Source of the DNA: Candidatus Poriferisocius aerobius
GTDB lineage: Bacteria > Actinomycetota > Acidimicrobiia > Acidimicrobiales > Bin134
NCBI GenBank assembly: GCA_028278955.1
Contig: JAPYOC010000073.1
Location: 1 to 53,800, forward strand
Direction: 5' to 3'
DNA: 53,800 nucleotides
Shown: piece by piece, positions 7,760-33,340 of the stretch
Layout of the letters: every line of letters starts with the position of its first letter
Numbering within the stretch: position 1 is the stretch's first letter
Made by a program: the position numbers and the translations under genes
Notes under the pieces: generated by a model
Told to the model about the DNA's origin: nothing
Seen by the model: the letters and a program-made list of their open reading frames with translations, nothing else
Database searches by the model: none

Positions 7760-8155
7760 TTAGCGTTTGGAGTACTGGGGTGCTTTGCGGGCTTTCTTCA
7801 GGCCGTATTTCTTGGATTCCTTCTTGCGGTCGTCGCGAGTCAGGAATCCCGCTTGCTTGAGGGAATCCCGCAATTCGGGATCCAATGCCACCAGGCCGCG
7901 GGCGATGCCCAGCCGGAGTGCTCCGGCCTGCCCGTTGGCCCCGCCCCCGTGCATATTCACGTCAATGTCGTACACTTGAGCGGTGTTGGTGAGCCGAAGA
8001 GGGGCCATAAAGGCCATCCGATGGCTGCGGGAGGGAAAGTAGTCCTGGGCTTCACGGCCGTTGACGGTCACCTGGCCGGTGCCGGGGCGGAACCGAACGC
8101 GGGCAATTGCCTGCTTGCGCCGACCGGTGGCCTGGGTCAGAGGGGAAGACATCAA
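7760..8155 (-). CDS. rpsI: 30S ribosomal protein S9
   Basis: 131 aa ending KKARKAPQYSKR. It overlaps the rplM stop. Confidence 0.95.
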   Translation of the reverse strand: MMSSPLTQATGRRKQAIARVRFRPGTGQVTVNGREAQDYFPSRSHRMAFMAPLRLTNTAQVYDIDVNMHGGGANGQAGALRLGIARGLVALDPELRDSLKQAGFLTRDDRKKESKKYGLKKARKAPQYSKR

Positions 8156-23030: not shown

Positions 23031-23716
23031 GAGTCGTCCCCTTCGCCGCCGGATTCTGGCTCGGCTGGTGCGGTGGAGGGCAGAGTGTCGAGGGTGAACA
23101 CCACCACATCGGACGTCAACACGTCGTAGGCGTTCAGCTCCCCGGGGCTGATGAGATGCACCTCGGAAAGGTTGCCGAAGCTCTTCCACACGTTCTGCTC
23201 GTTGCGTGGCGCCACCAGCAGCACCCGTCCTTTGGCCGGCAAAGCGGCGAGCGCGGCGACTGCGTCCTTGGTGCGGGGGGACTCGAATCGCCAGCGGTCC
23301 ACCACCACCACCTTGCCGTCTCGAGCCCGGTCGGACAGCGCCGATCGAAGGGCCAGGCGGACCATCTTCTTGGGGGTTCTCTGGCGGTAGCTCCGAGGCT
23401 TGGGACCCAGCGCCACGCCCCCTCCCCGCCATTGCGGATTCCGGGTAGAGCCGTGGCGGGCCCGGCCGGTGCCCTTCTGGCGCCACGGCTTTCCGGCCCC
23501 GCCTCTGACCTCGGCTCTGGTCTTGGTGCTCTGGGTTCCCCGCCGTCGGGCGGCAAGCTGGGCAGTGACCACTTGGTGCATGGCGAACACATTGGGCTCG
23601 ATGCCGAACACCTCGGGATCCAAGTCCACTGATCCGGTCTCTGTCCCGGAGGGGTCGCGCACGGTCACGGTATGCATCTGCCGGGCCGGCGCCGCGTCGA
23701 CGGGGAGGGCAGTCAT
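23027..23716 (-). CDS. rplD: 50S ribosomal protein L4
   Basis: [26 protein letters not shown] motif. The ATG at 23716 overlaps the rplC stop. Confidence 0.92.
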
Positions 23717-24363
23717 GGTCGCCCCGCCCCGTTCTTCACTGCGCTGCGGATCAGCACGGTTGCCCCTCGGCGACCGGGAACCGAGCCCTTGAGCAGGATC
23801 AAATCGTTCTCGACGTCCACCCTCACCACCTGGAGGTTCAGCGTGGTGACCTTCTCGGCCCCAGCCCGGCCTGGCATCTTCTTGCCCCGGAAAATCCTCG
23901 AAGGGGTGGCGCACTGGCCCACGGCGCCGGGTTTGCGATGCACCTTGTGGGCACCGTGGCTGGCTTTTTGACCGCTGAAGTTGTGGCGTTTCATGGTCCC
24001 GGAGAAGCCCTTGCCCTTGCTGACGCCGGTCACGTCCACCCGCTCGCCACCGTCGAACACGTCGGCGCCGATCTCCTGGCCGGTTTCATAGGCGCCCACA
24101 TCGTCGATGCGCAGTTCCACCAACTTGCGGCCGGGGGCGACGCCGGCCTTGTCCAAATGGCCCTGCTCCGGCTGGGTCAGCCGATCGGCGCTCTGGGTTC
24201 CGTAAGTCACCTGAAGGGCGGAATAGCCGTCGGTCTCCGGCCGTTTGACCTGCACAATGCGGCAGGGTTCCACTCGCAGCACGGTCACCGGCACGACGCG
24301 GTCGTCCTCGTCCCACACCTGGGTCATTCCTATCTTTTCGCCGACAATCGCCTTGGCAACCAT
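23713..24363 (-). CDS. rplC: 50S ribosomal protein L3
   Basis: GEKIGMTQVWDEDDRVVPVTV; 216 aa. Confidence 0.95.
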   Translation of the reverse strand: MVAKAIVGEKIGMTQVWDEDDRVVPVTVLRVEPCRIVQVKRPETDGYSALQVTYGTQSADRLTQPEQGHLDKAGVAPGRKLVELRIDDVGAYETGQEIGADVFDGGERVDVTGVSKGKGFSGTMKRHNFSGQKASHGAHKVHRKPGAVGQCATPSRIFRGKKMPGRAGAEKVTTLNLQVVRVDVENDLILLKGSVPGRRGATVLIRSAVKNGAGRP

Positions 24364-24640: not shown

Positions 24641-25789
24641 GTGGGGCCGTCACCATCCCAGAAGGTCCCGCCTTGGCTGTTTCGCGCCATCCTGGCCGGT
24701 GCGGCCGCTCTGGGCGGGCTGTACGTCGTGGGATGGCTGATCCGAGAGCTGAGGCCGCTCTTGGTGATCGTGCTGGTGTCGTTCTTCCTGTCTTTCGCGC
24801 TGGAGCCTGCGGTGAACCGCATGGAACAGATGGGCGTTCGCCGGGGCGTGGGCACCGGGCTCGTGTTCTTAGCGCTGCTGGCGGCAGTGGGGCTGTTCCT
24901 GTGGGCCATCGGCACGGTGCTGGCCGATCAGGTGGGCGAGTTTGCCGACGATGCCCCCGGCTACATCAACGATGTCGAGGATTGGGTGGAGGACGCTTTC
25001 GGCATTGAGGTCGACGCTCAAGGGCTGCTAGATGAGTTCCAGGAGGGTGGGGCCGTCGCCAACTTGGCCACCAGACTGGCCGAGAATCTCATCAACCTCG
25101 GTGCCACCGTGCTGCAAGTGCTGTTCCAGATTCTGACCATCGCACTGTTCACCTTCTATCTTGTGGCTGAAGGGCCGAAGCTGCGCCGCAACGTCTGCTC
25201 GTTGCTGTCGCCCGAGCATCAGCGCCAAGTGTTGAGCATTTGGAACCTGGCGATAGACAAGACCGGGGGTTACATCTACAGCCGGTTGATCCTGGCGACG
25301 GCCTCGTTCTTGGTCCACTGGCTGGTTTTCTGGCTGGTCGATGCGCCGTTCCCGGTGCCGATGGCGATGTGGGTGGGCTTGGTGTCGCAGTTCGTACCGG
25401 TGATCGGCACCTACATCGCCGGGGCGTTGCCTGTGCTGATCGGGCTGCTAGATGAGCCGTCGACCGGATTGGCCATCCTGATCTCCATTGTGGTCTATCA
25501 GCAGGTGGAGAACTACCTGCTCCAGCCCAAGGTGACCGCTCACACCATGGAGATCCACGTAACGGTGGCGTTCGGATCAGTGATTGCCGGCAGTCTGCTG
25601 TTGGGGCCGGTGGGAGCGGCGCTGGCCCTTCCCGCTGCTGCCACGGTGCAGGCCTTCTTGTCCAGCTACCTCGAACGCCACGAGGTGGTGCAAGAACTCG
25701 AAGACGCCGAGGCCGCCCAGCACCCTGAGCGCGACCCCATAGGCCAGCGGATCCGCCAAGCGGTGCGCCAGACCTTCACCCCCAAGTAA
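24641..25789 (+). CDS. AI-2E family transporter (PerM/YhhT-like permease)
   Basis: Multi-pass membrane protein with a typical UPF0118 C-terminal region (VYQQVENYLLQPKV). The longest ORF starts at GTG 24524. The GTG at 24641 follows GAGGAGG at good spacing and is preferred. Confidence 0.8.
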   Translation: MGPSPSQKVPPWLFRAILAGAAALGGLYVVGWLIRELRPLLVIVLVSFFLSFALEPAVNRMEQMGVRRGVGTGLVFLALLAAVGLFLWAIGTVLADQVGEFADDAPGYINDVEDWVEDAFGIEVDAQGLLDEFQEGGAVANLATRLAENLINLGATVLQVLFQILTIALFTFYLVAEGPKLRRNVCSLLSPEHQRQVLSIWNLAIDKTGGYIYSRLILATASFLVHWLVFWLVDAPFPVPMAMWVGLVSQFVPVIGTYIAGALPVLIGLLDEPSTGLAILISIVVYQQVENYLLQPKVTAHTMEIHVTVAFGSVIAGSLLLGPVGAALALPAAATVQAFLSSYLERHEVVQELEDAEAAQHPERDPIGQRIRQAVRQTFTPK

Positions 25790-25801
25790 GCAGCGAGGCA
25801 C

Positions 25802-25827
25802 CGTCAGGAGCAGGCGGCGAGGGCGGC
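25802..25827. repeat. left copy of a perfect 26-bp direct repeat (cgtcaggagcaggcggcgagggcggc)
   Basis: Identical to 28168..28193. It lies 13 bp after the permease stop and is a duplicate of the tpx 3' end, including the stop codon. Confidence 0.85.
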
Positions 25828-25842
25828 CACCAGCTCCAAGGG

Positions 25843-26928
25843 CTATAGCCGAATGGCAGGAGCAGGAGCGTCGACTATCCAGTTGTTGGGTTGAGTTGAT
25901 TCGCAGCGAAAGGTGACGCGTCCCGGGTCGACTGACAACCGCTCGAATCGACGAGTTGCCTCTTTGATCGTCTGAGTGACAGCACGTGGCCGTCGTCTTG
26001 GACGAGCAGTGGCGTTGTCGCGAGTGAGCCAAGCCTGTGATGTCAGACCGGCGATTCGAGCGCGGTCGCTGTCTCTGGGGAGATCTGCGTTTCCCTGTTT
26101 GAAGGGTGTGAGTCCAGCGATGGGATAGGGCACGAGAAGGTCATTCCACATGGACTGGTCGTGAGCATCCACGGAGCCATGGTGAGGAATCTTGACGACG
26201 TGAGCCATTTCTGAGGGCCTTCCACTGGAGTTGACGATTGCCCTCCAGCCTCTTGAATCGTCAGATGACCGTTCTAAATCAGCACCAAGTAGGGCGATTG
26301 CCTCCCCTACCCGTATCCAGACCACGACTGATGACGGGTTTCGCTGCGGTCGCGGGACAGCGCGTTTTGGCTGGCCGGGCTCTGCGATGAGTGTGCTGAA
26401 GCCAGAAATAGCATCTGCTATTGACGCGCTGCTCGGGGACAAGGTCCATATCTCACAGTCTGGAGCCAAATTCGTCGACCGTTGGTGGATCCTTGAATCA
26501 GCCGAAGCAAGTTGCGGTGCGCCTCGCCCAGAGTCCCTGAGATGAGTCCAAACGGTCCACATCTCTTTGACACCAGATGAACCTTCAATGAAGGAGTCTG
26601 CGTCCAGTGCGGCGAGCATCATGAACTCGTCTTTCTCGAGCGCAGCCGAATGGATCACTCTGGCCGCTGAGCACCCCTCGACCAGTTCGGAGAAGCCGCG
26701 AATATGGTCGTCGTGCCAATGAGTGGCTACGACCCAGTGCACAGCATCTGTGGCCACTCCCAGTGATTCGAGGTATGCGAGCGCTGCGGGGCGGCCAGCT
26801 TGGGTCACACAGGAGTCGATGATGAGCCATTCGCCGCCGCCGACATGCAGTACGCAGCACTCTCCTCGACCAGGACCGAGGAGAGTTATCTCGATCTCAT
26901 CGTCCCTTGGGGGCTGACGAGTCACCAT
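25843..26928 (-). CDS. MBL-fold metallo-hydrolase, ComEC/Rec2-like beta-lactamase domain (candidate nuclease)
   Basis: Motifs THWHDDH (HxHxDH) and KIPHHGS. The ATG at 26928 overlaps the upstream stop (ATGGTGA). The longest ORF starts at 26991. Confidence 0.75.
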   Translation of the reverse strand: MVTRQPPRDDEIEITLLGPGRGECCVLHVGGGEWLIIDSCVTQAGRPAALAYLESLGVATDAVHWVVATHWHDDHIRGFSELVEGCSAARVIHSAALEKDEFMMLAALDADSFIEGSSGVKEMWTVWTHLRDSGRGAPQLASADSRIHQRSTNLAPDCEIWTLSPSSASIADAISGFSTLIAEPGQPKRAVPRPQRNPSSVVVWIRVGEAIALLGADLERSSDDSRGWRAIVNSSGRPSEMAHVVKIPHHGSVDAHDQSMWNDLLVPYPIAGLTPFKQGNADLPRDSDRARIAGLTSQAWLTRDNATARPRRRPRAVTQTIKEATRRFERLSVDPGRVTFRCESTQPNNWIVDAPAPAIRL

Positions 26929-27467
26929 CCGAAACGGATTCGAAGCTCCTCGGCGCGGTCGGCGGCTCTTCGAAGATCCCTGTCGCTCCAAGAAGGCAGT
27001 CGACGGAACACGAGAACGGATGATCGGCTTCGCTCTCCAGAAGGCTCGGTGCGGTAGCCGACGCTCCAGTAGAAGACTGCCCCTGGCGCCACGAGGGCCA
27101 GATCGCCGCGGCTCACTTCCTCAAGATCGAATTCAGCTACTTCTTCGTCTGAGGTTTCTATCAGGTCGAACAGCCGAGCGATGAAAGTTGAGCCCGTCAC
27201 CTCGGAAACCGTTCCTTGCCACTTTTGGAGGACATGAAAGTGCGGCTGGACCTGAGTGTGACTGGGTAGAGCAACAGGTGGAACAACGGGCAGGGGAGAT
27301 CGACCGCGGCTTATGGCATTTATCTGGTCGCCGCCGGGCGCTGTTTCTGATGTCTCTTCGACAAGCATTGACTGGGCTTGTCGCGGGATGCTGTATGCAG
27401 GGGTCGATGCTGCTTCGTGGCATGAACTGCTCTCATGGAGAAGCCTGAGGCTGCAAGTTGCCGTCAT
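26922..27467 (-). CDS. hypothetical protein (181 aa: low-complexity N-terminal half, conserved-looking C-terminal ~100 aa)
   Basis: The ATG at 27467 overlaps the upstream stop (ATGA), and its own stop overlaps the MBL start. I recognise no motif. Confidence 0.5.
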   Translation of the reverse strand: MTATCSLRLLHESSSCHEAASTPAYSIPRQAQSMLVEETSETAPGGDQINAISRGRSPLPVVPPVALPSHTQVQPHFHVLQKWQGTVSEVTGSTFIARLFDLIETSDEEVAEFDLEEVSRGDLALVAPGAVFYWSVGYRTEPSGERSRSSVLVFRRLPSWSDRDLRRAADRAEELRIRFGW

Positions 27468-28123
27468 CTAATCAGACCCTCCACATGTCCAAGTATTTGA
27501 TTTGCACGCTCTGAGATATTTCTCCATTCAACATTCAACAACTTGCCTATAGCCACTGTAGATATTGACATGTTCTCTTGAGATAAACTGAAGTGGTCGT
27601 TAACTTCACAGAGTACATTTTTTCCTCCGTCCAATATCGGTTCAACCTTTACTCGTATATATCCATCATGACCATCGGTTCGCTCACCCTGTTCTTCGAC
27701 CCGTACCATGTCGGGTCTTTGCAGTACCGCAGTCCACTTTTCGGCGGGCACGAGTTCCCGACCTAGCTGGTTGAACTGGTCTTTTGACTCATACTCGAGG
27801 ACTAGATCGTGATTAATACCAAGGGCCCGAGTGGGGATGTGTCTGAGTAAATCGAGTGTGCCAATGAGCAAGTCTCTTGTTGCCTCGTAATGGGATTCCC
27901 GTTTTGAGTGAAGAGCAAGGCGGTCGCGAGTCACTTGCAAACGGAGCCAGTCCAACTGAAATATCGCTACCTCAGAATGGATGATCTCAATCTTGTCGAC
28001 GTCAACTTCCTCATGTCGGATTAAATCTTCTTGGGCAAACCATGAAGGATGAAAGATCGAAGGGTTGAACGCACCGAGGACCACGAGAGAGATCTCGCGC
28101 TGGATTTGCTGTGGCCTAGCCAT
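27464..28123 (-). CDS. hypothetical protein (219 aa), AT-rich foreign gene
   Basis: ATG at 28123 with a GAGGG Shine-Dalgarno sequence 4 nt upstream. It is a clean 219-aa ORF in sequence of ~40% G+C (hand count 38-40% over 27481-27600). I recognise no catalytic motif. Confidence 0.6.
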   Translation of the reverse strand: MARPQQIQREISLVVLGAFNPSIFHPSWFAQEDLIRHEEVDVDKIEIIHSEVAIFQLDWLRLQVTRDRLALHSKRESHYEATRDLLIGTLDLLRHIPTRALGINHDLVLEYESKDQFNQLGRELVPAEKWTAVLQRPDMVRVEEQGERTDGHDGYIRVKVEPILDGGKNVLCEVNDHFSLSQENMSISTVAIGKLLNVEWRNISERANQILGHVEGLIR

Positions 28124-28167
28124 CAGACCCTCAATCTTAGGTCCTTGACTGCCGGTCAGCCAGGGTG

Positions 28168-28193
28168 CGTCAGGAGCAGGCGGCGAGGGCGGC
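28168..28193. repeat. right copy of the perfect 26-bp direct repeat, inside the 3' end of tpx
   Basis: Identical to 25802..25827. On the minus strand it encodes ..AALAACS plus the stop. Confidence 0.85.
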
Positions 28194-28670
28194 GTCGTAG
28201 TCGGGCTCGTCGGCGATGGCGCCCACCAGCTCGGAGTGGGCCACGGTGCCGTCGGGGGCGATGACCACCACGGCTCGGGCGGTGAGACCGGACAGGGGGC
28301 CGTCGACCATCTCTACGCCGTAGTCGCTGAGGAACTCCCGGTTGCGGAAGATGGAGCCGATGGTCACGTTCTCGATCCCCTCCGCGCCGCAGAAGCGGGC
28401 GCCGGCGAAGGGCAGGTCCAACGAGGCGCAGATCACGGTGGTGTTGTCGAGGTTGGCGGCCCGCTCGTTGAAGGCTCGCACGCTGGTGGCGCACACCCCG
28501 GTGTCGATGCTGGGGAAGATGTTGAGTACCACGCTGCGCCCGGCCAAGCCCTCCAGTGTGACGGGGGATAGGTCGCCGCCGGTGAGGGTGAAGGCCGGCG
28601 CGGTCGTTCCCGCCGCGGGCAAATCACCGCTGGTGTTGATGGCTATGTCTTTGAATTTGGTCTGGCCCAT
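28170..28670 (-). CDS. tpx: thiol peroxidase (atypical 2-Cys peroxiredoxin Tpx)
   Basis: An internal ATG of ORF 28170..29039 gives MGQTKFKD..LNIFPSIDTGVCATS..SLDLPFAGARFCGAEG; 166 aa. Confidence 0.9.
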   Translation of the reverse strand: MGQTKFKDIAINTSGDLPAAGTTAPAFTLTGGDLSPVTLEGLAGRSVVLNIFPSIDTGVCATSVRAFNERAANLDNTTVICASLDLPFAGARFCGAEGIENVTIGSIFRNREFLSDYGVEMVDGPLSGLTARAVVVIAPDGTVAHSELVGAIADEPDYDAALAACS

Positions 28671-28704: not shown

Positions 28705-31700
28705 TTGCCGGGGAAGGCGATTGTGCCGGATTCATCAGAGATGGCCCGCCTTGCGGGGCATTGCGGCCAAGCTGTCACCGCCCGCTCGTACAATCGGGCC
28801 ATGGTTCCTGCTGACCACCGGGACGAGAAGGCGCTGAACGCGGCCATTGCCGCCGCCATCGGTCGGTGCCACCCGCAGTCTGTGGTAGAAGCCGAGCGAG
28901 CCAGCAAGCTGGTCGGCTCAGCCAAGCAGCCCGACATCACCGTGGAAGCTCCCGGCCGTGAGCGAGTGCTGGTAGAGAACAAGTACTCCAACGTCTCGGC
29001 CCGGCACTTGGAGGAGCAGTGCTTGGGCCATTTCGGCACGCAGTGGGCCGCCGATCAGCGCCCAGTCCGGGTGGTAGTGGCCATGAGGAGCCCGGAGCGG
29101 CTGAATGACTTCTCTGATGAGGATCTCGCCGAAGGCGCGTTTACCGAGATCACCTTCCAGTGGGCCATGTGGTCGGTGAACGGCGAGGGTGATCCGGCTC
29201 GGTTCCCCGAATCCGGATGGCTGGAGGGTAGGATCGCCGAACTGGCCGCCTTCATCGACCGGGCGGGGGCCGACGGTGCCGACGCCGGTCCGGCCGCAGA
29301 GCGGCTACAGGCGCAGCTGGCCGCAGCGGCGGGCCAAGCCACCGAGGGGGTGGGCACTGCCGAGGCCTTCGGACTGGTGCTGGCCCAGGAGCCGGGGGAG
29401 CAGACCAACCGCATGGCGATGGCGATCCTGTTCAACGCCGTGCTGTTCCAGTTCCATATTGCCGCGCACCATCCAGAGATACCAACGCCCTCGCAGATGC
29501 TGGCCGACAACAAGCTGGATCAGCTCCATGTGCTCGAAATATGGCAGCAGGTCTTGGAGGTGAACTACTGGCCCATTTTCGGAGTGAGCCGAAGGCTGCT
29601 GCGGGAAATCAACAGTTTCGGGGCTGCCAAGCGATCGTTGGAACTACTGTGCCGCACCGCAGGGGAGATAGCCCACGACCCCAGTTCATCGGGCCTGGTG
29701 GGGCGGCTCCTCGGAGAGTTGATCGGCGACCGCAAATTCTTGGCCACCTTCTACACCCATCCTGCCTCGGCCGCGATGTTGGCCGAGCTGGCGGTGAGTC
29801 GCTTGGATGTGGATTGGTCGGATCCCGAGGCTATTGCCGGGTTGAGGGTGGGCGACATGGCCTGTGGCACCGGGGCGCTGTTGACCGCGGTCTACCGGCG
29901 GATCGTGGAGCGACACCGGGTTGAGGGCGGCGACGATGCCAATATCCATCGGACGCTCATGGAGGAGGTGATGATCGGCTGCGACATCATGGCCGCGGCC
30001 GTGCATCTGACGGCGTCTCGCCTGTCGGGGGAGCGGCCCGACATCGACTACACCGGCACCAAGACCTGGGTGATGCCCTACGGCAAAGTGGCCGATGCCC
30101 GCGGGGTGGTCGGCTACCGGATAGGGGCGCTCGACCTGTTGCACTCCAACACCCGCTATGCCCTCTGGGGTGACGGCACGCTGGCGGCGGCCGCGCAGGG
30201 AGAAGAGGCGCTGGCCTTCGCTGACGTTGCTGCAGAGTCATTGGACATCGCCATCATGAACCCCCCGTTCACCCGGCCGACCAACCATGAGGCCACCCAC
30301 GCCGAAGTGCCCAACCCGGCGTTTGCCGGGCTGGGCAACGACCCGCAAGATCAGAAGGCGATGTCGGAGGCGCTGGTGGCGAGCATCAAGAGCATCAGCG
30401 GCGGCAAGGCCAGTCACGGCAACGCGGGAATCGCCTCCAACTTCATCGACTTGGCCCATGCCAAGCTCAAGCCCGGCGGCGTATTGGCCCTGATCGTGCC
30501 GGCGTCGCTGGTTTCCGGGGCCTCGTGGAGGCCGGCGCGCGGTCTTCTGGCTGCTGGCTATGGAGACATTGAGATCTTCTCCATTTCAGAGCACGGAGAC
30601 GAAGCGTCGCAGGGCCGTGCCTTCTCTGCCGACACCGGGATGGCGGAAGTGATTGTGGTTGCCACAAAGCATGAGCGATCTCCGCGTAGCAGATCGCTGG
30701 AGGCCGATTATGTGGTCTTGGGCAAGCGGCCCGTGTCGGCGCTGGCTGGAGTTGAGATCGCGCAAGCGGTGATGGGCTCAGAGGAACGAGATGCTCTGCT
30801 GTCTCTTGGCGATCAGGTTCATGGACATCGTTCAGCATCGGCATTCACGAAAAACATGTGTGGCCACCCGGTTGGAACTCACAGTTTTGAGGTTGTTGTC
30901 ACCTCTTCAGAGCTTGCAGCCGGAAAGCTGGCATTACCCCGTGGTCGTGCCTTGGATCTTCCAATCAGCGGACTGGCTCAGCTCGGCTACCGAGGGTCGG
31001 TAGACAGAGACATTGCAGGCAAAAACTCAGACGGCACACCACGGGGGCCTTTCGATATCCTCAGGCTCTCAGATAGGCATCAGCACGCCAGCGTTGATTG
31101 GCCAGTGCTCTGGTCACATGACCATAGAGCAGAGATATTGATGAGAGTCCTCCCCTGTTCGAGGGGAGTCTTGCGCCAGAATATGAGAAATCGGGCGCTA
31201 GAGATTTGGGAGGGACGCGACAACCCTGTCGGCGGACAGTGGATTTCAGGCGCAACCCGTCTCCACATCAACAGCGACTTTCGGCTGAACTCTCAGCCCA
31301 CCGCCGCTTGTCTGACCCCCAAGCCTGCCATGGGCGGGCGGGCGTGGCCCTCGTTTCAGCCGACGGCGGACGACGAATCTGAAAATGAGAACTGGGAGAA
31401 GGCAATCTGCGTATGGCTGAACAGCACCCTCGGCCTGCTCGGACGCTGGTGGGTCTCCAGCCGCCAGCAAAAGGGTCGGGCAAACCTCACGATCACCACC
31501 CTGGGGAGCATTCCCGTTCTGGACTTGCAGGCCATCTCAGCTGAACAGGTACGGGAGCTGGCCGCCACCTTCGACGAGTTTGAGCACCGGCCCATGCTGC
31601 CGGCCAACGAGGCCTACCGAGACGAAACCCGCCAGGAACTAGACTGGGCAGTGCTGTGCGGGGTGCTGGGGCTTCCCGAGACCATTCTCGACCCGCTGGC

Positions 31701-31764
31701 AACGCTGAGATTGCAGTGGTGCGCGGAGCCCTCGGTTCATGGCAACAAGAAAACCCGTCCCTGA
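28705..31764 (+). CDS. single-polypeptide restriction-modification-like enzyme: PD-ExK nuclease-like N-terminus, gamma-class N6-adenine DNA methyltransferase and TaqI-like specificity domain (type IIG/IIL-like)
   Basis: QPDITVEAPGRERVLVENKY (D..ExK); FYTHPASAAMLAEL (motif X-like); VGDMACGTGALL (motif I); IMNPPFT (motif IV); VWLNSTLGLLGRWWV..GSIPVLD (TaqI-C-like). The start is uncertain: TTG 28705, GTG 28723 (which has GGAAGG upstream) or ATG 28741. Confidence 0.7.
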   Translation: MPGKAIVPDSSEMARLAGHCGQAVTARSYNRAMVPADHRDEKALNAAIAAAIGRCHPQSVVEAERASKLVGSAKQPDITVEAPGRERVLVENKYSNVSARHLEEQCLGHFGTQWAADQRPVRVVVAMRSPERLNDFSDEDLAEGAFTEITFQWAMWSVNGEGDPARFPESGWLEGRIAELAAFIDRAGADGADAGPAAERLQAQLAAAAGQATEGVGTAEAFGLVLAQEPGEQTNRMAMAILFNAVLFQFHIAAHHPEIPTPSQMLADNKLDQLHVLEIWQQVLEVNYWPIFGVSRRLLREINSFGAAKRSLELLCRTAGEIAHDPSSSGLVGRLLGELIGDRKFLATFYTHPASAAMLAELAVSRLDVDWSDPEAIAGLRVGDMACGTGALLTAVYRRIVERHRVEGGDDANIHRTLMEEVMIGCDIMAAAVHLTASRLSGERPDIDYTGTKTWVMPYGKVADARGVVGYRIGALDLLHSNTRYALWGDGTLAAAAQGEEALAFADVAAESLDIAIMNPPFTRPTNHEATHAEVPNPAFAGLGNDPQDQKAMSEALVASIKSISGGKASHGNAGIASNFIDLAHAKLKPGGVLALIVPASLVSGASWRPARGLLAAGYGDIEIFSISEHGDEASQGRAFSADTGMAEVIVVATKHERSPRSRSLEADYVVLGKRPVSALAGVEIAQAVMGSEERDALLSLGDQVHGHRSASAFTKNMCGHPVGTHSFEVVVTSSELAAGKLALPRGRALDLPISGLAQLGYRGSVDRDIAGKNSDGTPRGPFDILRLSDRHQHASVDWPVLWSHDHRAEILMRVLPCSRGVLRQNMRNRALEIWEGRDNPVGGQWISGATRLHINSDFRLNSQPTAACLTPKPAMGGRAWPSFQPTADDESENENWEKAICVWLNSTLGLLGRWWVSSRQQKGRANLTITTLGSIPVLDLQAISAEQVRELAATFDEFEHRPMLPANEAYRDETRQELDWAVLCGVLGLPETILDPLATLRLQWCAEPSVHGNKKTRP

Positions 31765-33019: not shown

Positions 33020-33340
33020 TCAGCCGTGTTGGAGCTTGATCTCTATGTCGACACCTGCGGGCAAGTCCAGCCGCTGAAGGGAGTCCACGGTCTTGGGACC
33101 GGGATCCACGATGTCGAGCAAGCGCTTGTGGATGCGTATCTCGAAATGCTCGCGGCTGTCTTTGTCTTTGTGGGGCGAACGGATGACGGTGAAGCGGTGC
33201 TTCTCGGTGGGCAGCGGGACAGGTCCCCGCAGATCGGCCTGAGTGCGCTTGACCGTCTCCACGATCTTCTTCGTGGACTGGTCGATGATCTCGTGATCGT
33301 AGGCCTTCAGCCGAATGCGGATTTTCTGTCCTGCGGCCAT
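33020..33340 (-). CDS. rpsJ: 30S ribosomal protein S10
   Basis: An internal ATG gives [48 protein letters not shown]; 106 aa. It lies 5 bp after tuf. Confidence 0.95.

Follow-up and report, generated by a model that had tools for sequence, protein, structure and literature searches.

The 53,800-nucleotide (nt) stretch of DNA analyzed here, hereafter the window, represents positions 1 to 53,800 of contig JAPYOC010000073.1 of Candidatus Poriferisocius aerobius and carries a 2.3-kb accessory islet at the 3' end of the thiol peroxidase gene tpx. The islet is one tight operon of three genes that encode two proteins we denote p219 and p181 and a metallo-beta-lactamase (MBL)-fold hydrolase, and it is bracketed by two direct repeats derived from the end of tpx. 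Our explanation, which we hold to be probable, is that the islet arrived by a Campbell-type insertion, that the displaced copy of the tpx end subsequently decayed, and that the cargo is a defense or addiction module; the type of recombination and the function of the cargo are the parts that we infer. Under this model, a single reciprocal crossover would have joined an incoming tpx 3' segment (the last 241 nt with a spacer of about 14 nt) to the resident tpx, such that the incoming copy completed tpx whereas the resident 3' end, together with its native spacer, came to lie beyond the cassette, beside the adjoining permease gene. In this species, the displaced copy would then have lost about 170 nt and afterwards 30 nt, leaving about 40 nt, of which 26 are identical to the functional end, so that the cassette would be hardly removable by recombination between the repeats and is probably locked in. 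In the genus at large, the cassette would be a passenger that spreads among related genomes by repeated insertion, presumably via a circular intermediate, and is lost by the reverse recombination between repeats.

The comparison with related genomes identifies both the insertion and its boundaries. A search with the permease retrieved 16 species-level genomes of Candidatus Poriferisocius, a genus of sponge-associated Acidimicrobiia, out of a genus sample of 20 related genomes in total (16 + 3 species plus strain variants). The first-pass annotation had proposed looking for empty sites in relatives, and these were found in 15 of the 16 species, where the stop codon of the permease directly faces that of tpx at a distance of 14-100 nt. 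In six of the 15 (L016, L017, L019, L020, L026 and L028), exactly 14 nt separate the two stops, the same 20-nt layout (permease stop, 14 nt and TCA) that is seen at the left junction of the window. The left repeat copy can thus be recognized as the native tpx end with its native spacer (25790..25803), and the sequence downstream of the gene end that is attached to tpx in the window is foreign. By these comparisons, the cassette was indeed inserted here. On the right, the site is bounded by a gene that adjoins tpx in the 15 empty-site species, is convergent with it and encodes an AI-2E family transporter (the permease; 24641..25789, plus strand; Pfam PF01594, E 1.8e-58).

The repeat itself, CGTCAGGAGCAGGCGGCGAGGGCGGC, is an exact 26-bp direct repeat present in only two copies, at 25802-25827 and 28168-28193, both on the plus strand; these copies, already noticed in the first-pass annotation, were recovered by our search, and the 26-mer did not occur in any of 100 dinucleotide-preserving shuffles even with 3 mismatches tolerated. 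The right copy is indeed the end of the functional tpx, in that it contains the stop codon (28170-28172) and the last codons, although these are 7 codons plus 2 nt 3' of the gene rather than 8 codons as first described. The left copy, which takes up 2 nt of spacer and, from the displaced native end of tpx, the stop and the last 7 codons, begins 12 nt, not 13, past the permease stop (TAA, 25787-25789). The likeness between the two sides runs to 37 nt at 89% identity (25791-25827 and 28157-28193) and takes in a relic of the tpx-permease spacer. The sequence CACCAGCTC that follows the left copy (25828-25836) recurs further into tpx, at 28224-28232, as had been observed before; here the left side is short of 30 nt, and the two near-identical 13-mers that bracket the missing nucleotides, CGGCGAGGGCGGC and CGGCGATGGCGCC, point to a slippage-type deletion in a longer duplicate. 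The entire remnant, a decayed pseudogene of the native tpx 3' end (25804..25841, minus strand), was delineated by alignment to tpx, to the 241-bp remnants of L018 and L096, and to the 13-nt relic of L097, and comprises the stop and 7 codons, the 30-nt deletion, GAGCTGGTG(G), a deletion of about 170 nt and the junction relic CCTTG. Thus, the 26-bp repeat of the window, initially taken for an att-type repeat, is not an att core but the leftover of a duplication of about 255 bp (241 nt of tpx plus the spacer) after these two deletions of about 170 nt and 30 nt.

The interval between the repeats (25828-28167, 2340 nt) has a GC content of 55.3% compared to 65.1% for the whole window, in accord with the low values noted previously. 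Within it, the GC content is 39.2% at 27481-27600, 47.4% in p219 and 58.4% in the MBL gene; the 78% reported earlier for a sample of tuf was unrepresentative, given that this gene has 63.6% overall. No integrase or transposase domains were detected inside the interval with Pfam, and the comparison of its ends revealed no terminal inverted repeats, as the first-pass annotation had likewise concluded. Independent assemblies from JGI, NCBI and Logan (L001-L006, L008, L009, L011 and L014) show the same layout of repeat and cassette, with both copies; because these come from different pipelines, an assembly artefact, and with it the collapse that had been named as a possible refutation, is excluded.

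The three genes of the cassette are on the minus strand, in the same orientation as tpx, and are joined by 4-nt overlaps of start and stop codons. p219 (219 amino acids (aa); 27464..28123), a conserved alpha/beta protein, is the first gene of the operon and is followed by p181 (181 aa; 26922..27467), which combines a variable, disordered N-terminal half with a conserved C-terminal beta domain of about 105 aa that resembles the oligonucleotide/oligosaccharide-binding (OB) fold. The last gene encodes the ComEC-like MBL-fold hydrolase (360 aa; 25843..26925; Pfam Lactamase_B, E 1.1e-8; gene call from public assemblies); at its start it shares 4 nt with the end of p181, and its stop codon is separated from the tpx remnant by about 2 nt. 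Beyond the opposite end of the cassette, tpx is intact (28170..28670, minus strand; 166 aa; NCBIfam NF001808, E 8.5e-66; Pfam Redoxin). Its last 241 nt (28170..28410, minus strand; tpx nt 261-501) are the segment that is duplicated in L018, L096 and L178-L180, with the boundary CTTCGCCGG at tpx nt 261, and its very end is the right repeat copy. Between the tpx stop and the p219 start lies a spacer that appears to be borne by the element (28124..28169, minus strand) and contains a GAGGG ribosome-binding site along with the relic of a tpx-permease spacer; homologous spacers are found in L096, L178 and L180. No terminator-like site was found in these 46 nt.

Other species of the genus preserve the original form of the duplication, bearing out the earlier suspicion of a decayed longer duplicate. 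In L096, a complete chromosome, tpx is followed by p219-p181-MBL, then by a 241-bp duplicate of its 3' end and finally by the permease, and the two 241-bp copies form a gapless direct repeat with 92% identity. The same 241-bp remnant adjoins the permease in L018, and three Logan contigs from other samples (L178-L180) show the same design as L096. The junction is fixed: in L018, L096, L178, L179 and L180, the MBL stop is followed within 2-5 nt by CTTCGCCGG, that is, by tpx nt 261, and relics of this junction persist as 13 nt in L097 and as CCCTT in the window. The relic in L097 carries that lineage's own tpx variant, GCTAGCGC. Further stages of decay were detected as well. In the sister strain type of the window species (L007, L010 and L012), the repeat is wholly lost and the junction tract has diverged, and an 8-bp tandem duplication (CCATGGCT; window-equivalent about 26183) shifts the frame of the MBL gene and truncates its product to 296-297 aa. 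L097 has a stop codon within p219, and most of the MBL gene is gone in L098. The genus thus offers a series from the empty site, through the intact 241-bp duplication, the 40-nt relic and the complete absence of a relic, to decaying cargo, which illustrates how an islet arrives, stays removable for a time and then locks in as its repeat erodes. L178, L179 and L180 (2544-2603 bp) consist of the cassette alone with partial tpx 3' ends on both sides, and the ends of the L180 contig overlap by exactly 28 nt, a feature that fits a circular form and an assembler break or collapse at the 241-bp repeat equally well. As a separate observation, L007, L010 and L012 share a tract of about 450 bp, with about 17% divergence, that runs from the 3' end of the MBL gene across the junction into the 3' end of the permease gene (window-equivalent 25500-25950) and is set in otherwise 99% identical sequence; it looks like a recombination tract that was imported.

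The substitutions in the two copies of the tpx end bear on how the cassette was acquired. Between the functional and the displaced copy of L096, there are 20 differences, 19 of which are synonymous, and no indels; the remnants of L018 and L096 differ at nine positions, all of them synonymous and again without indels, and in a third comparison of copies all 11 differences are synonymous. Both copies have thus evolved under purifying selection. Furthermore, in comparison with the tpx end of L017, a sister species with an empty site, the L096 remnant shows 98.3% identity and the L096 functional copy 92.1%. Taken together with the lineage-specific variant of L097, these patterns imply that both copies worked over the greater part of their history as gene ends in different genomes. 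One tpx end would accordingly have come with the cassette, the other being the resident end. In the host tree, built from the rplB-permease region, the cassette is present in three separate clades (window and L007; L018 and L096; L097 and L098) among empty lineages. The number of synonymous substitutions per synonymous site (dS) between the cassettes of different lineages is 0.8-2 and does not track the host distance; for the window and L096, cassette dS is 1.05-1.65 versus 0.45-0.65 for the host genes tpx, rplC and permease, i.e. two to three times as high. The functional tpx ends do not track the cassette lineages either, which hints at shuffling; co-variation with the cassette is limited to the last codons and the spacer, and the rest looks mosaic.

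Beyond the genus, a profile search with p219 yielded 199 genomic loci; the analyses described below rest on 80 of these, with one representative genome per species. p219 is followed by homologues of p181 and the MBL gene, in the same order, in 78 of the 80 loci, and the other two stop at a contig edge. More than ten phyla are represented, including Actinomycetota, Chloroflexota, Planctomycetota, Verrucomicrobiota, Acidobacteriota, Gemmatimonadota, several deltaproteobacterial lineages, Bacteroidota and others. In 59 of 60 loci, the trio has a lower GC content than its flanks (median difference, -6.6 points), and the neighbors are unrelated housekeeping genes. Most trio loci have no detectable flanking repeats; nonetheless, such repeats were detected in 10 of 57 testable loci as opposed to 3 of 102 shifted control windows (p = 0.002). 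They range from 20 bp to 1.1 kb, and several are duplicates of gene ends or of whole genes with 68-100% identity, for example, a 214-bp copy of the 5' end of a dihydrodipicolinate synthase (DHDPS)-family gene in L136 (7705-7918 and 10483-10696), at least 121 bp of the 3' part of pepP in L161, 27 bp covering the end of an acyltransferase gene in L134, and an entire 1.1-kb enolase-superfamily gene, at 71% identity, in L131. The orientation of the cassette relative to the target gene differs between loci. Among the 127 nearest and 114 second-nearest neighboring open reading frames (241 in about 75 loci), there is no recurring recombinase family. No conserved motif was found at the cassette ends, the shared k-mers coming only from six related Chloroflexota loci, and the 80 loci included no case of multiple near-identical copies.

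These observations suggest that the islet is a compact three-gene unit that moves as such. That it is a remnant of a larger island, one of two possibilities raised at first, is not borne out, given that in about 80 genomes of many phyla the traveling unit is made up of the same three genes and no others; an origin from a larger integrase island was also rejected because no recombinase family recurs among the neighbors. A phage origin was rejected on account of the near absence of the trio from phages, with no matches in 50,697 phage genomes and 3 in 2.9 million IMG/VR contigs. A transposon or insertion sequence is ruled out by the lack of a transposase, terminal inverted repeats and conserved ends, and by repeats of 20 bp to 1.1 kb instead of a fixed length. 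The trio is rare on plasmids, where we found it on pAR24_C of Pantoea agglomerans and on a plasmid of Adhaeribacter swui, with its genes annotated as hypothetical or MBL-fold. On pAR24_C, which is conjugative, the distant trio homologue (L176, 7612-10263) lies between two tyrosine-recombinase genes in an accessory region. In sponge-type Chloroflexota, the trio is located between tRNA-Gly(tcc) and the DHDPS-family gene; L136 also holds an extra gene of unknown function (531 aa), and L143 and L150 retain, at about 7820-7848 of their own sequences, only a 24-29-nt repeat at the place equivalent to that in L136. The metagenome-assembled genome CAZEZQ01 contains two diverged trio copies on different contigs (L108 and L157), with p219 proteins 38% and 29% identical to that of the window, indicating that one genome can hold more than one variant. 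Our literature search found nothing on the trio or on islands of this genus.

The ratio of nonsynonymous to synonymous substitution rates in the cassette genes, 0.06-0.29, shows that the cargo is subject to strong purifying selection. The MBL protein carries the motifs HWHDDH and PHHGS, the latter typical of ComEC-type MBL domains, and its N-terminal core has weak, partial matches to defense effectors, namely LmuA (4.6e-9) and the reverse transcriptase (RT)-associated MBL (3.3e-7) in PADLOC and Avs1a (4.5e-5) in NCBIfam, as well as to ComEC (NCBIfam, 0.003). All of these scores are far under the curated cut-offs (24 bits versus 220 for 6A-MBL, and 22 versus 420 for another model). The same protein matches an uncharacterized phage family, phrog_28593, with E 3e-34. 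p219 has no match in Pfam, NCBIfam or PADLOC, and p181 none in these databases or in PHROG. The AlphaFold2 (AF2) model of p219 is of high confidence (predicted local distance difference test (pLDDT) score 90) and of the alpha/beta type, and 24 residues are invariant across the family. There is no confident structural relative in the PDB, the best template modelling (TM) score being 0.32, and the candidates AdoMetDC and RepDE were discarded at TM of about 0.3; one unnamed viral protein matches structurally at TM 0.64-0.68. For p181, pLDDT is 80-95 over residues 70-180, and the top Foldseek matches of the C-terminal domain are OB folds (the LysRS N-domain, exosome Csl4/Rrp40, Rim1 and RPA). We tentatively assign this predicted domain to the OB fold, with caution because the TM scores are low. 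None of the three proteins contains a recombinase domain in Pfam, NCBIfam, PADLOC or PHROGs. The cargo is most likely a module for DNA-directed defense or addiction, which would be made up of a ComEC-like MBL nuclease, an OB-fold nucleic acid binder and a partner of unknown function.

The exchange itself was most likely a case of ordinary homologous recombination, with the tpx segment of the incoming DNA as the region of homology. Empty sites contain the repeated host segment only once, and both copies stem from functional alleles, as expected of insertion driven by homology; homology is also favored by the absence of a recombinase nearby, the variable repeat lengths at other loci and the lack of correspondence between functional tpx ends and cassette lineages. 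Several observations weigh against parts of this explanation. No empty allele was seen within the species: all 9 contigs with the exact tpx protein of this species carry the cassette, and the permease look-up gave the same result. No circular form of the cassette was seen. The flanking duplicates of L131 (71%) and L101 (69%) are, by their present divergence, too dissimilar for homologous recombination. In L096, the single informative case, the exchange point falls inside the first 24 nt of the repeat or upstream, which would be better predicted by a fixed core than by random homologous crossovers. A 30-bp repeat of the tRNA-Met 3' end surrounds the same three genes in L175, and at 16 loci there is a tRNA gene, no more than about 600 bp away, whose 3' end points towards the cassette; both features are hallmarks of integrase-type integration. 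Finally, the immediate neighbors of the trio show no clear enrichment for PADLOC defense families, so that the proposed defense role rests on domain content only.

Some of these observations are what would be expected of a non-autonomous, att-flanked element, similar to a cis-mobilizable element (CIME) or a satellite, that supplies a replacement 3' end and is integrated at a fixed core near tpx nt 261 by a tyrosine or serine integrase encoded elsewhere. Apart from the L096 exchange point, the L175 repeat and the cassette-facing tRNA genes, this reading would account for a junction that remained fixed across cassette lineages with saturated synonymous divergence, and a mainly synonymous replacement of a gene end is the known pattern of e14 at icd. 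We nevertheless regard it as unlikely. There is no integrase in or beside the window cassette and no recurring recombinase in the vicinity of the trio elsewhere, and no larger element occupies tpx in the 20 genus genomes; a fixed junction is equally expected if it was an inherited part of the incoming DNA, and the repeats at other loci vary in length from 20 bp to 1.1 kb. L175 is the only one of the 16 tRNA-adjacent loci with a tRNA 3'-end repeat on the far side of the cassette, and the gene beside that repeat is Fic/DOC, not an integrase. Hence, of the earlier proposal that site-specific integration regenerated the tpx 3' end, the regeneration is upheld by the empty sites and the incoming tpx end, whereas site-specific recombination is not demonstrated.

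A single ancient insertion with duplication in situ at the root of the genus, followed only by vertical descent, many independent losses and decay, and with no later horizontal movement, appears improbable. The junction is the same in all copies, loss by recombination between the repeats would restore a perfect empty site and could explain the resemblance of the L017 tpx end to the L096 remnant, and a decay series is apparent in the window, L007, L097 and L098; however, the long remnants show no neutral decay, with almost exclusively synonymous differences and no indels, the L097 remnant has the tpx substitutions of its own lineage, the cassette dS between the window and L096 exceeds that of the host genes, and at least six losses would be required on the host tree. 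Still less probable, in our estimate, is that the trio is a new integrative element, its three products (MBL nuclease, OB-fold protein and p219) cleaving and joining DNA at the ends of genes and tRNAs with the use of a carried copy of the target end. Such an element would be compatible with the presence of only these three genes between the repeats in the window, L096, L136, L175 and L134, with the enrichment of flanking repeats, with the sporadic, cross-phylum and low-GC distribution and with the absence of another recombinase nearby. None of the proteins, however, resembles a known recombinase or transposase, the ends lack both a conserved motif and inverted repeats, most loci have no detectable repeat, the sample of one genome per species includes no near-identical multi-copy cases, the orientation to the target gene varies, and in Poriferisocius the MBL stop abuts the repeat and leaves no room for an end site. 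As for a chance repeat or an assembly collapse, nothing beyond the high GC content of the region speaks for it, and it is refuted by the shuffles, the identical structure in independent assemblies and the longer homologous repeats in other species, so that its probability is negligible.

Among known systems, the closest parallel to the proposed Campbell-type arrival at tpx is found at icd of Escherichia coli, where e14 and phage 21 carry an alternative 3' end and integration regenerates an intact gene (PMC13626634). What remains of the native icd 3' end is a pseudogene fragment, icdC, on the far side; most differences between the copies are silent, and excision of e14 produces a chimeric gene (PMC13626634). 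The islet resembles this arrangement in having a functional tpx end and a displaced remnant, with 19 of 20 synonymous differences in L096, but e14, a prophage remnant of 15 kb, has an integrase of its own whereas the islet comprises 2.3 kb and three unrelated genes without a recombinase, and the duplicate in the window, unlike that at icd, has decayed to 26 identical nt. By topology, the islet can be placed with the integrative islets that replace gene ends, although a recombinase, their defining feature, is encoded neither in it nor nearby.

A CIME is defined relative to a cognate integrative and conjugative element (ICE) or integrative and mobilizable element (IME) that uses the same att site. 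As in CIMEs, the direct repeats derive from the target 3' end and there are no genes for integration or transfer; in contrast to CIMEs, no cognate ICE, IME or prophage was found at tpx in the 20 genomes of this one genus, and with no helper element using tpx among them, the CIME-like label given previously is unconfirmed. The occurrence of the same trio at other targets in other phyla further argues against a deletion remnant of any one particular ICE. As in Campbell-type insertions and exchange at hot spots, the repeated segment belongs to the host and occurs once where the site is empty, and both of its copies were functional at some time. With defense islets at hot spots, the islet shares the scattered presence and absence on the host tree and a second variable gene across tpx, but the double crossover of classical hot-spot replacement leaves no repeat. 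To our knowledge, natural islets that carry a fixed homology arm across many lineages have not been described as a class. The MBL protein has the N-terminal MBL core with HxHxDH of MBL effectors (Avs1a, the MBL-type LmuA of Lamassu, the RT-associated MBL of DRT and 6A-MBL) and of ComEC/Rec2, to which its matches are weak; in contrast to the MBL anti-phage systems, it has no full-length match above cut-off, p219 and p181 match no PADLOC, NCBIfam or Pfam model, and there is no SMC, NTPase, RT or membrane domain.

The structure at tpx as such is of an ordinary kind, an islet with a regenerated gene end. The trio, by contrast, is an uncharacterized, strongly selected module in about 200 genomes that is nearly always compositionally foreign, is often flanked by repeats or adjacent to tRNA genes, and has no accompanying recombinase. 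It is either a new candidate DNA-targeting defense or addiction system or a mobile unit whose movement is not understood, and both ideas are testable with the homologues from cultured hosts, on the plasmids of Pantoea agglomerans and Adhaeribacter swui. Should the trio prove to integrate by itself, it would be an element without a tyrosine, serine, DDE or HUH enzyme, and this would account for the occurrence of only three genes between target-derived direct repeats in several phyla.

The surroundings of tpx show additional variation. The S10 ribosomal-protein operon is split in the window, with rpsJ (33020-33340, right after tuf) separated by about 8.7 kb from rplC (23713-24363). This interval holds a serB-like gene, a gene for a methylase-like protein of 1007 aa, tpx, the cassette and the permease, and in more distant Acidimicrobiales (L036-L038, L043, L045 and L047), only the permease is present between rpsJ and rplC. 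The 1007-aa protein, encoded on the other side of tpx (28741-31764, plus strand), has weak matches to N6-methyltransferase, MAD2 and type IIG-like proteins. Its gene is found in only some species of the genus, and in a comparison of the two strain types it is the most diverged part of the locus: 28800-30400 contains about 220 differences, against near-identity elsewhere. It looks like a second variable, defense-like gene, and its position beyond tpx suggests that tpx is the center of a hot spot.

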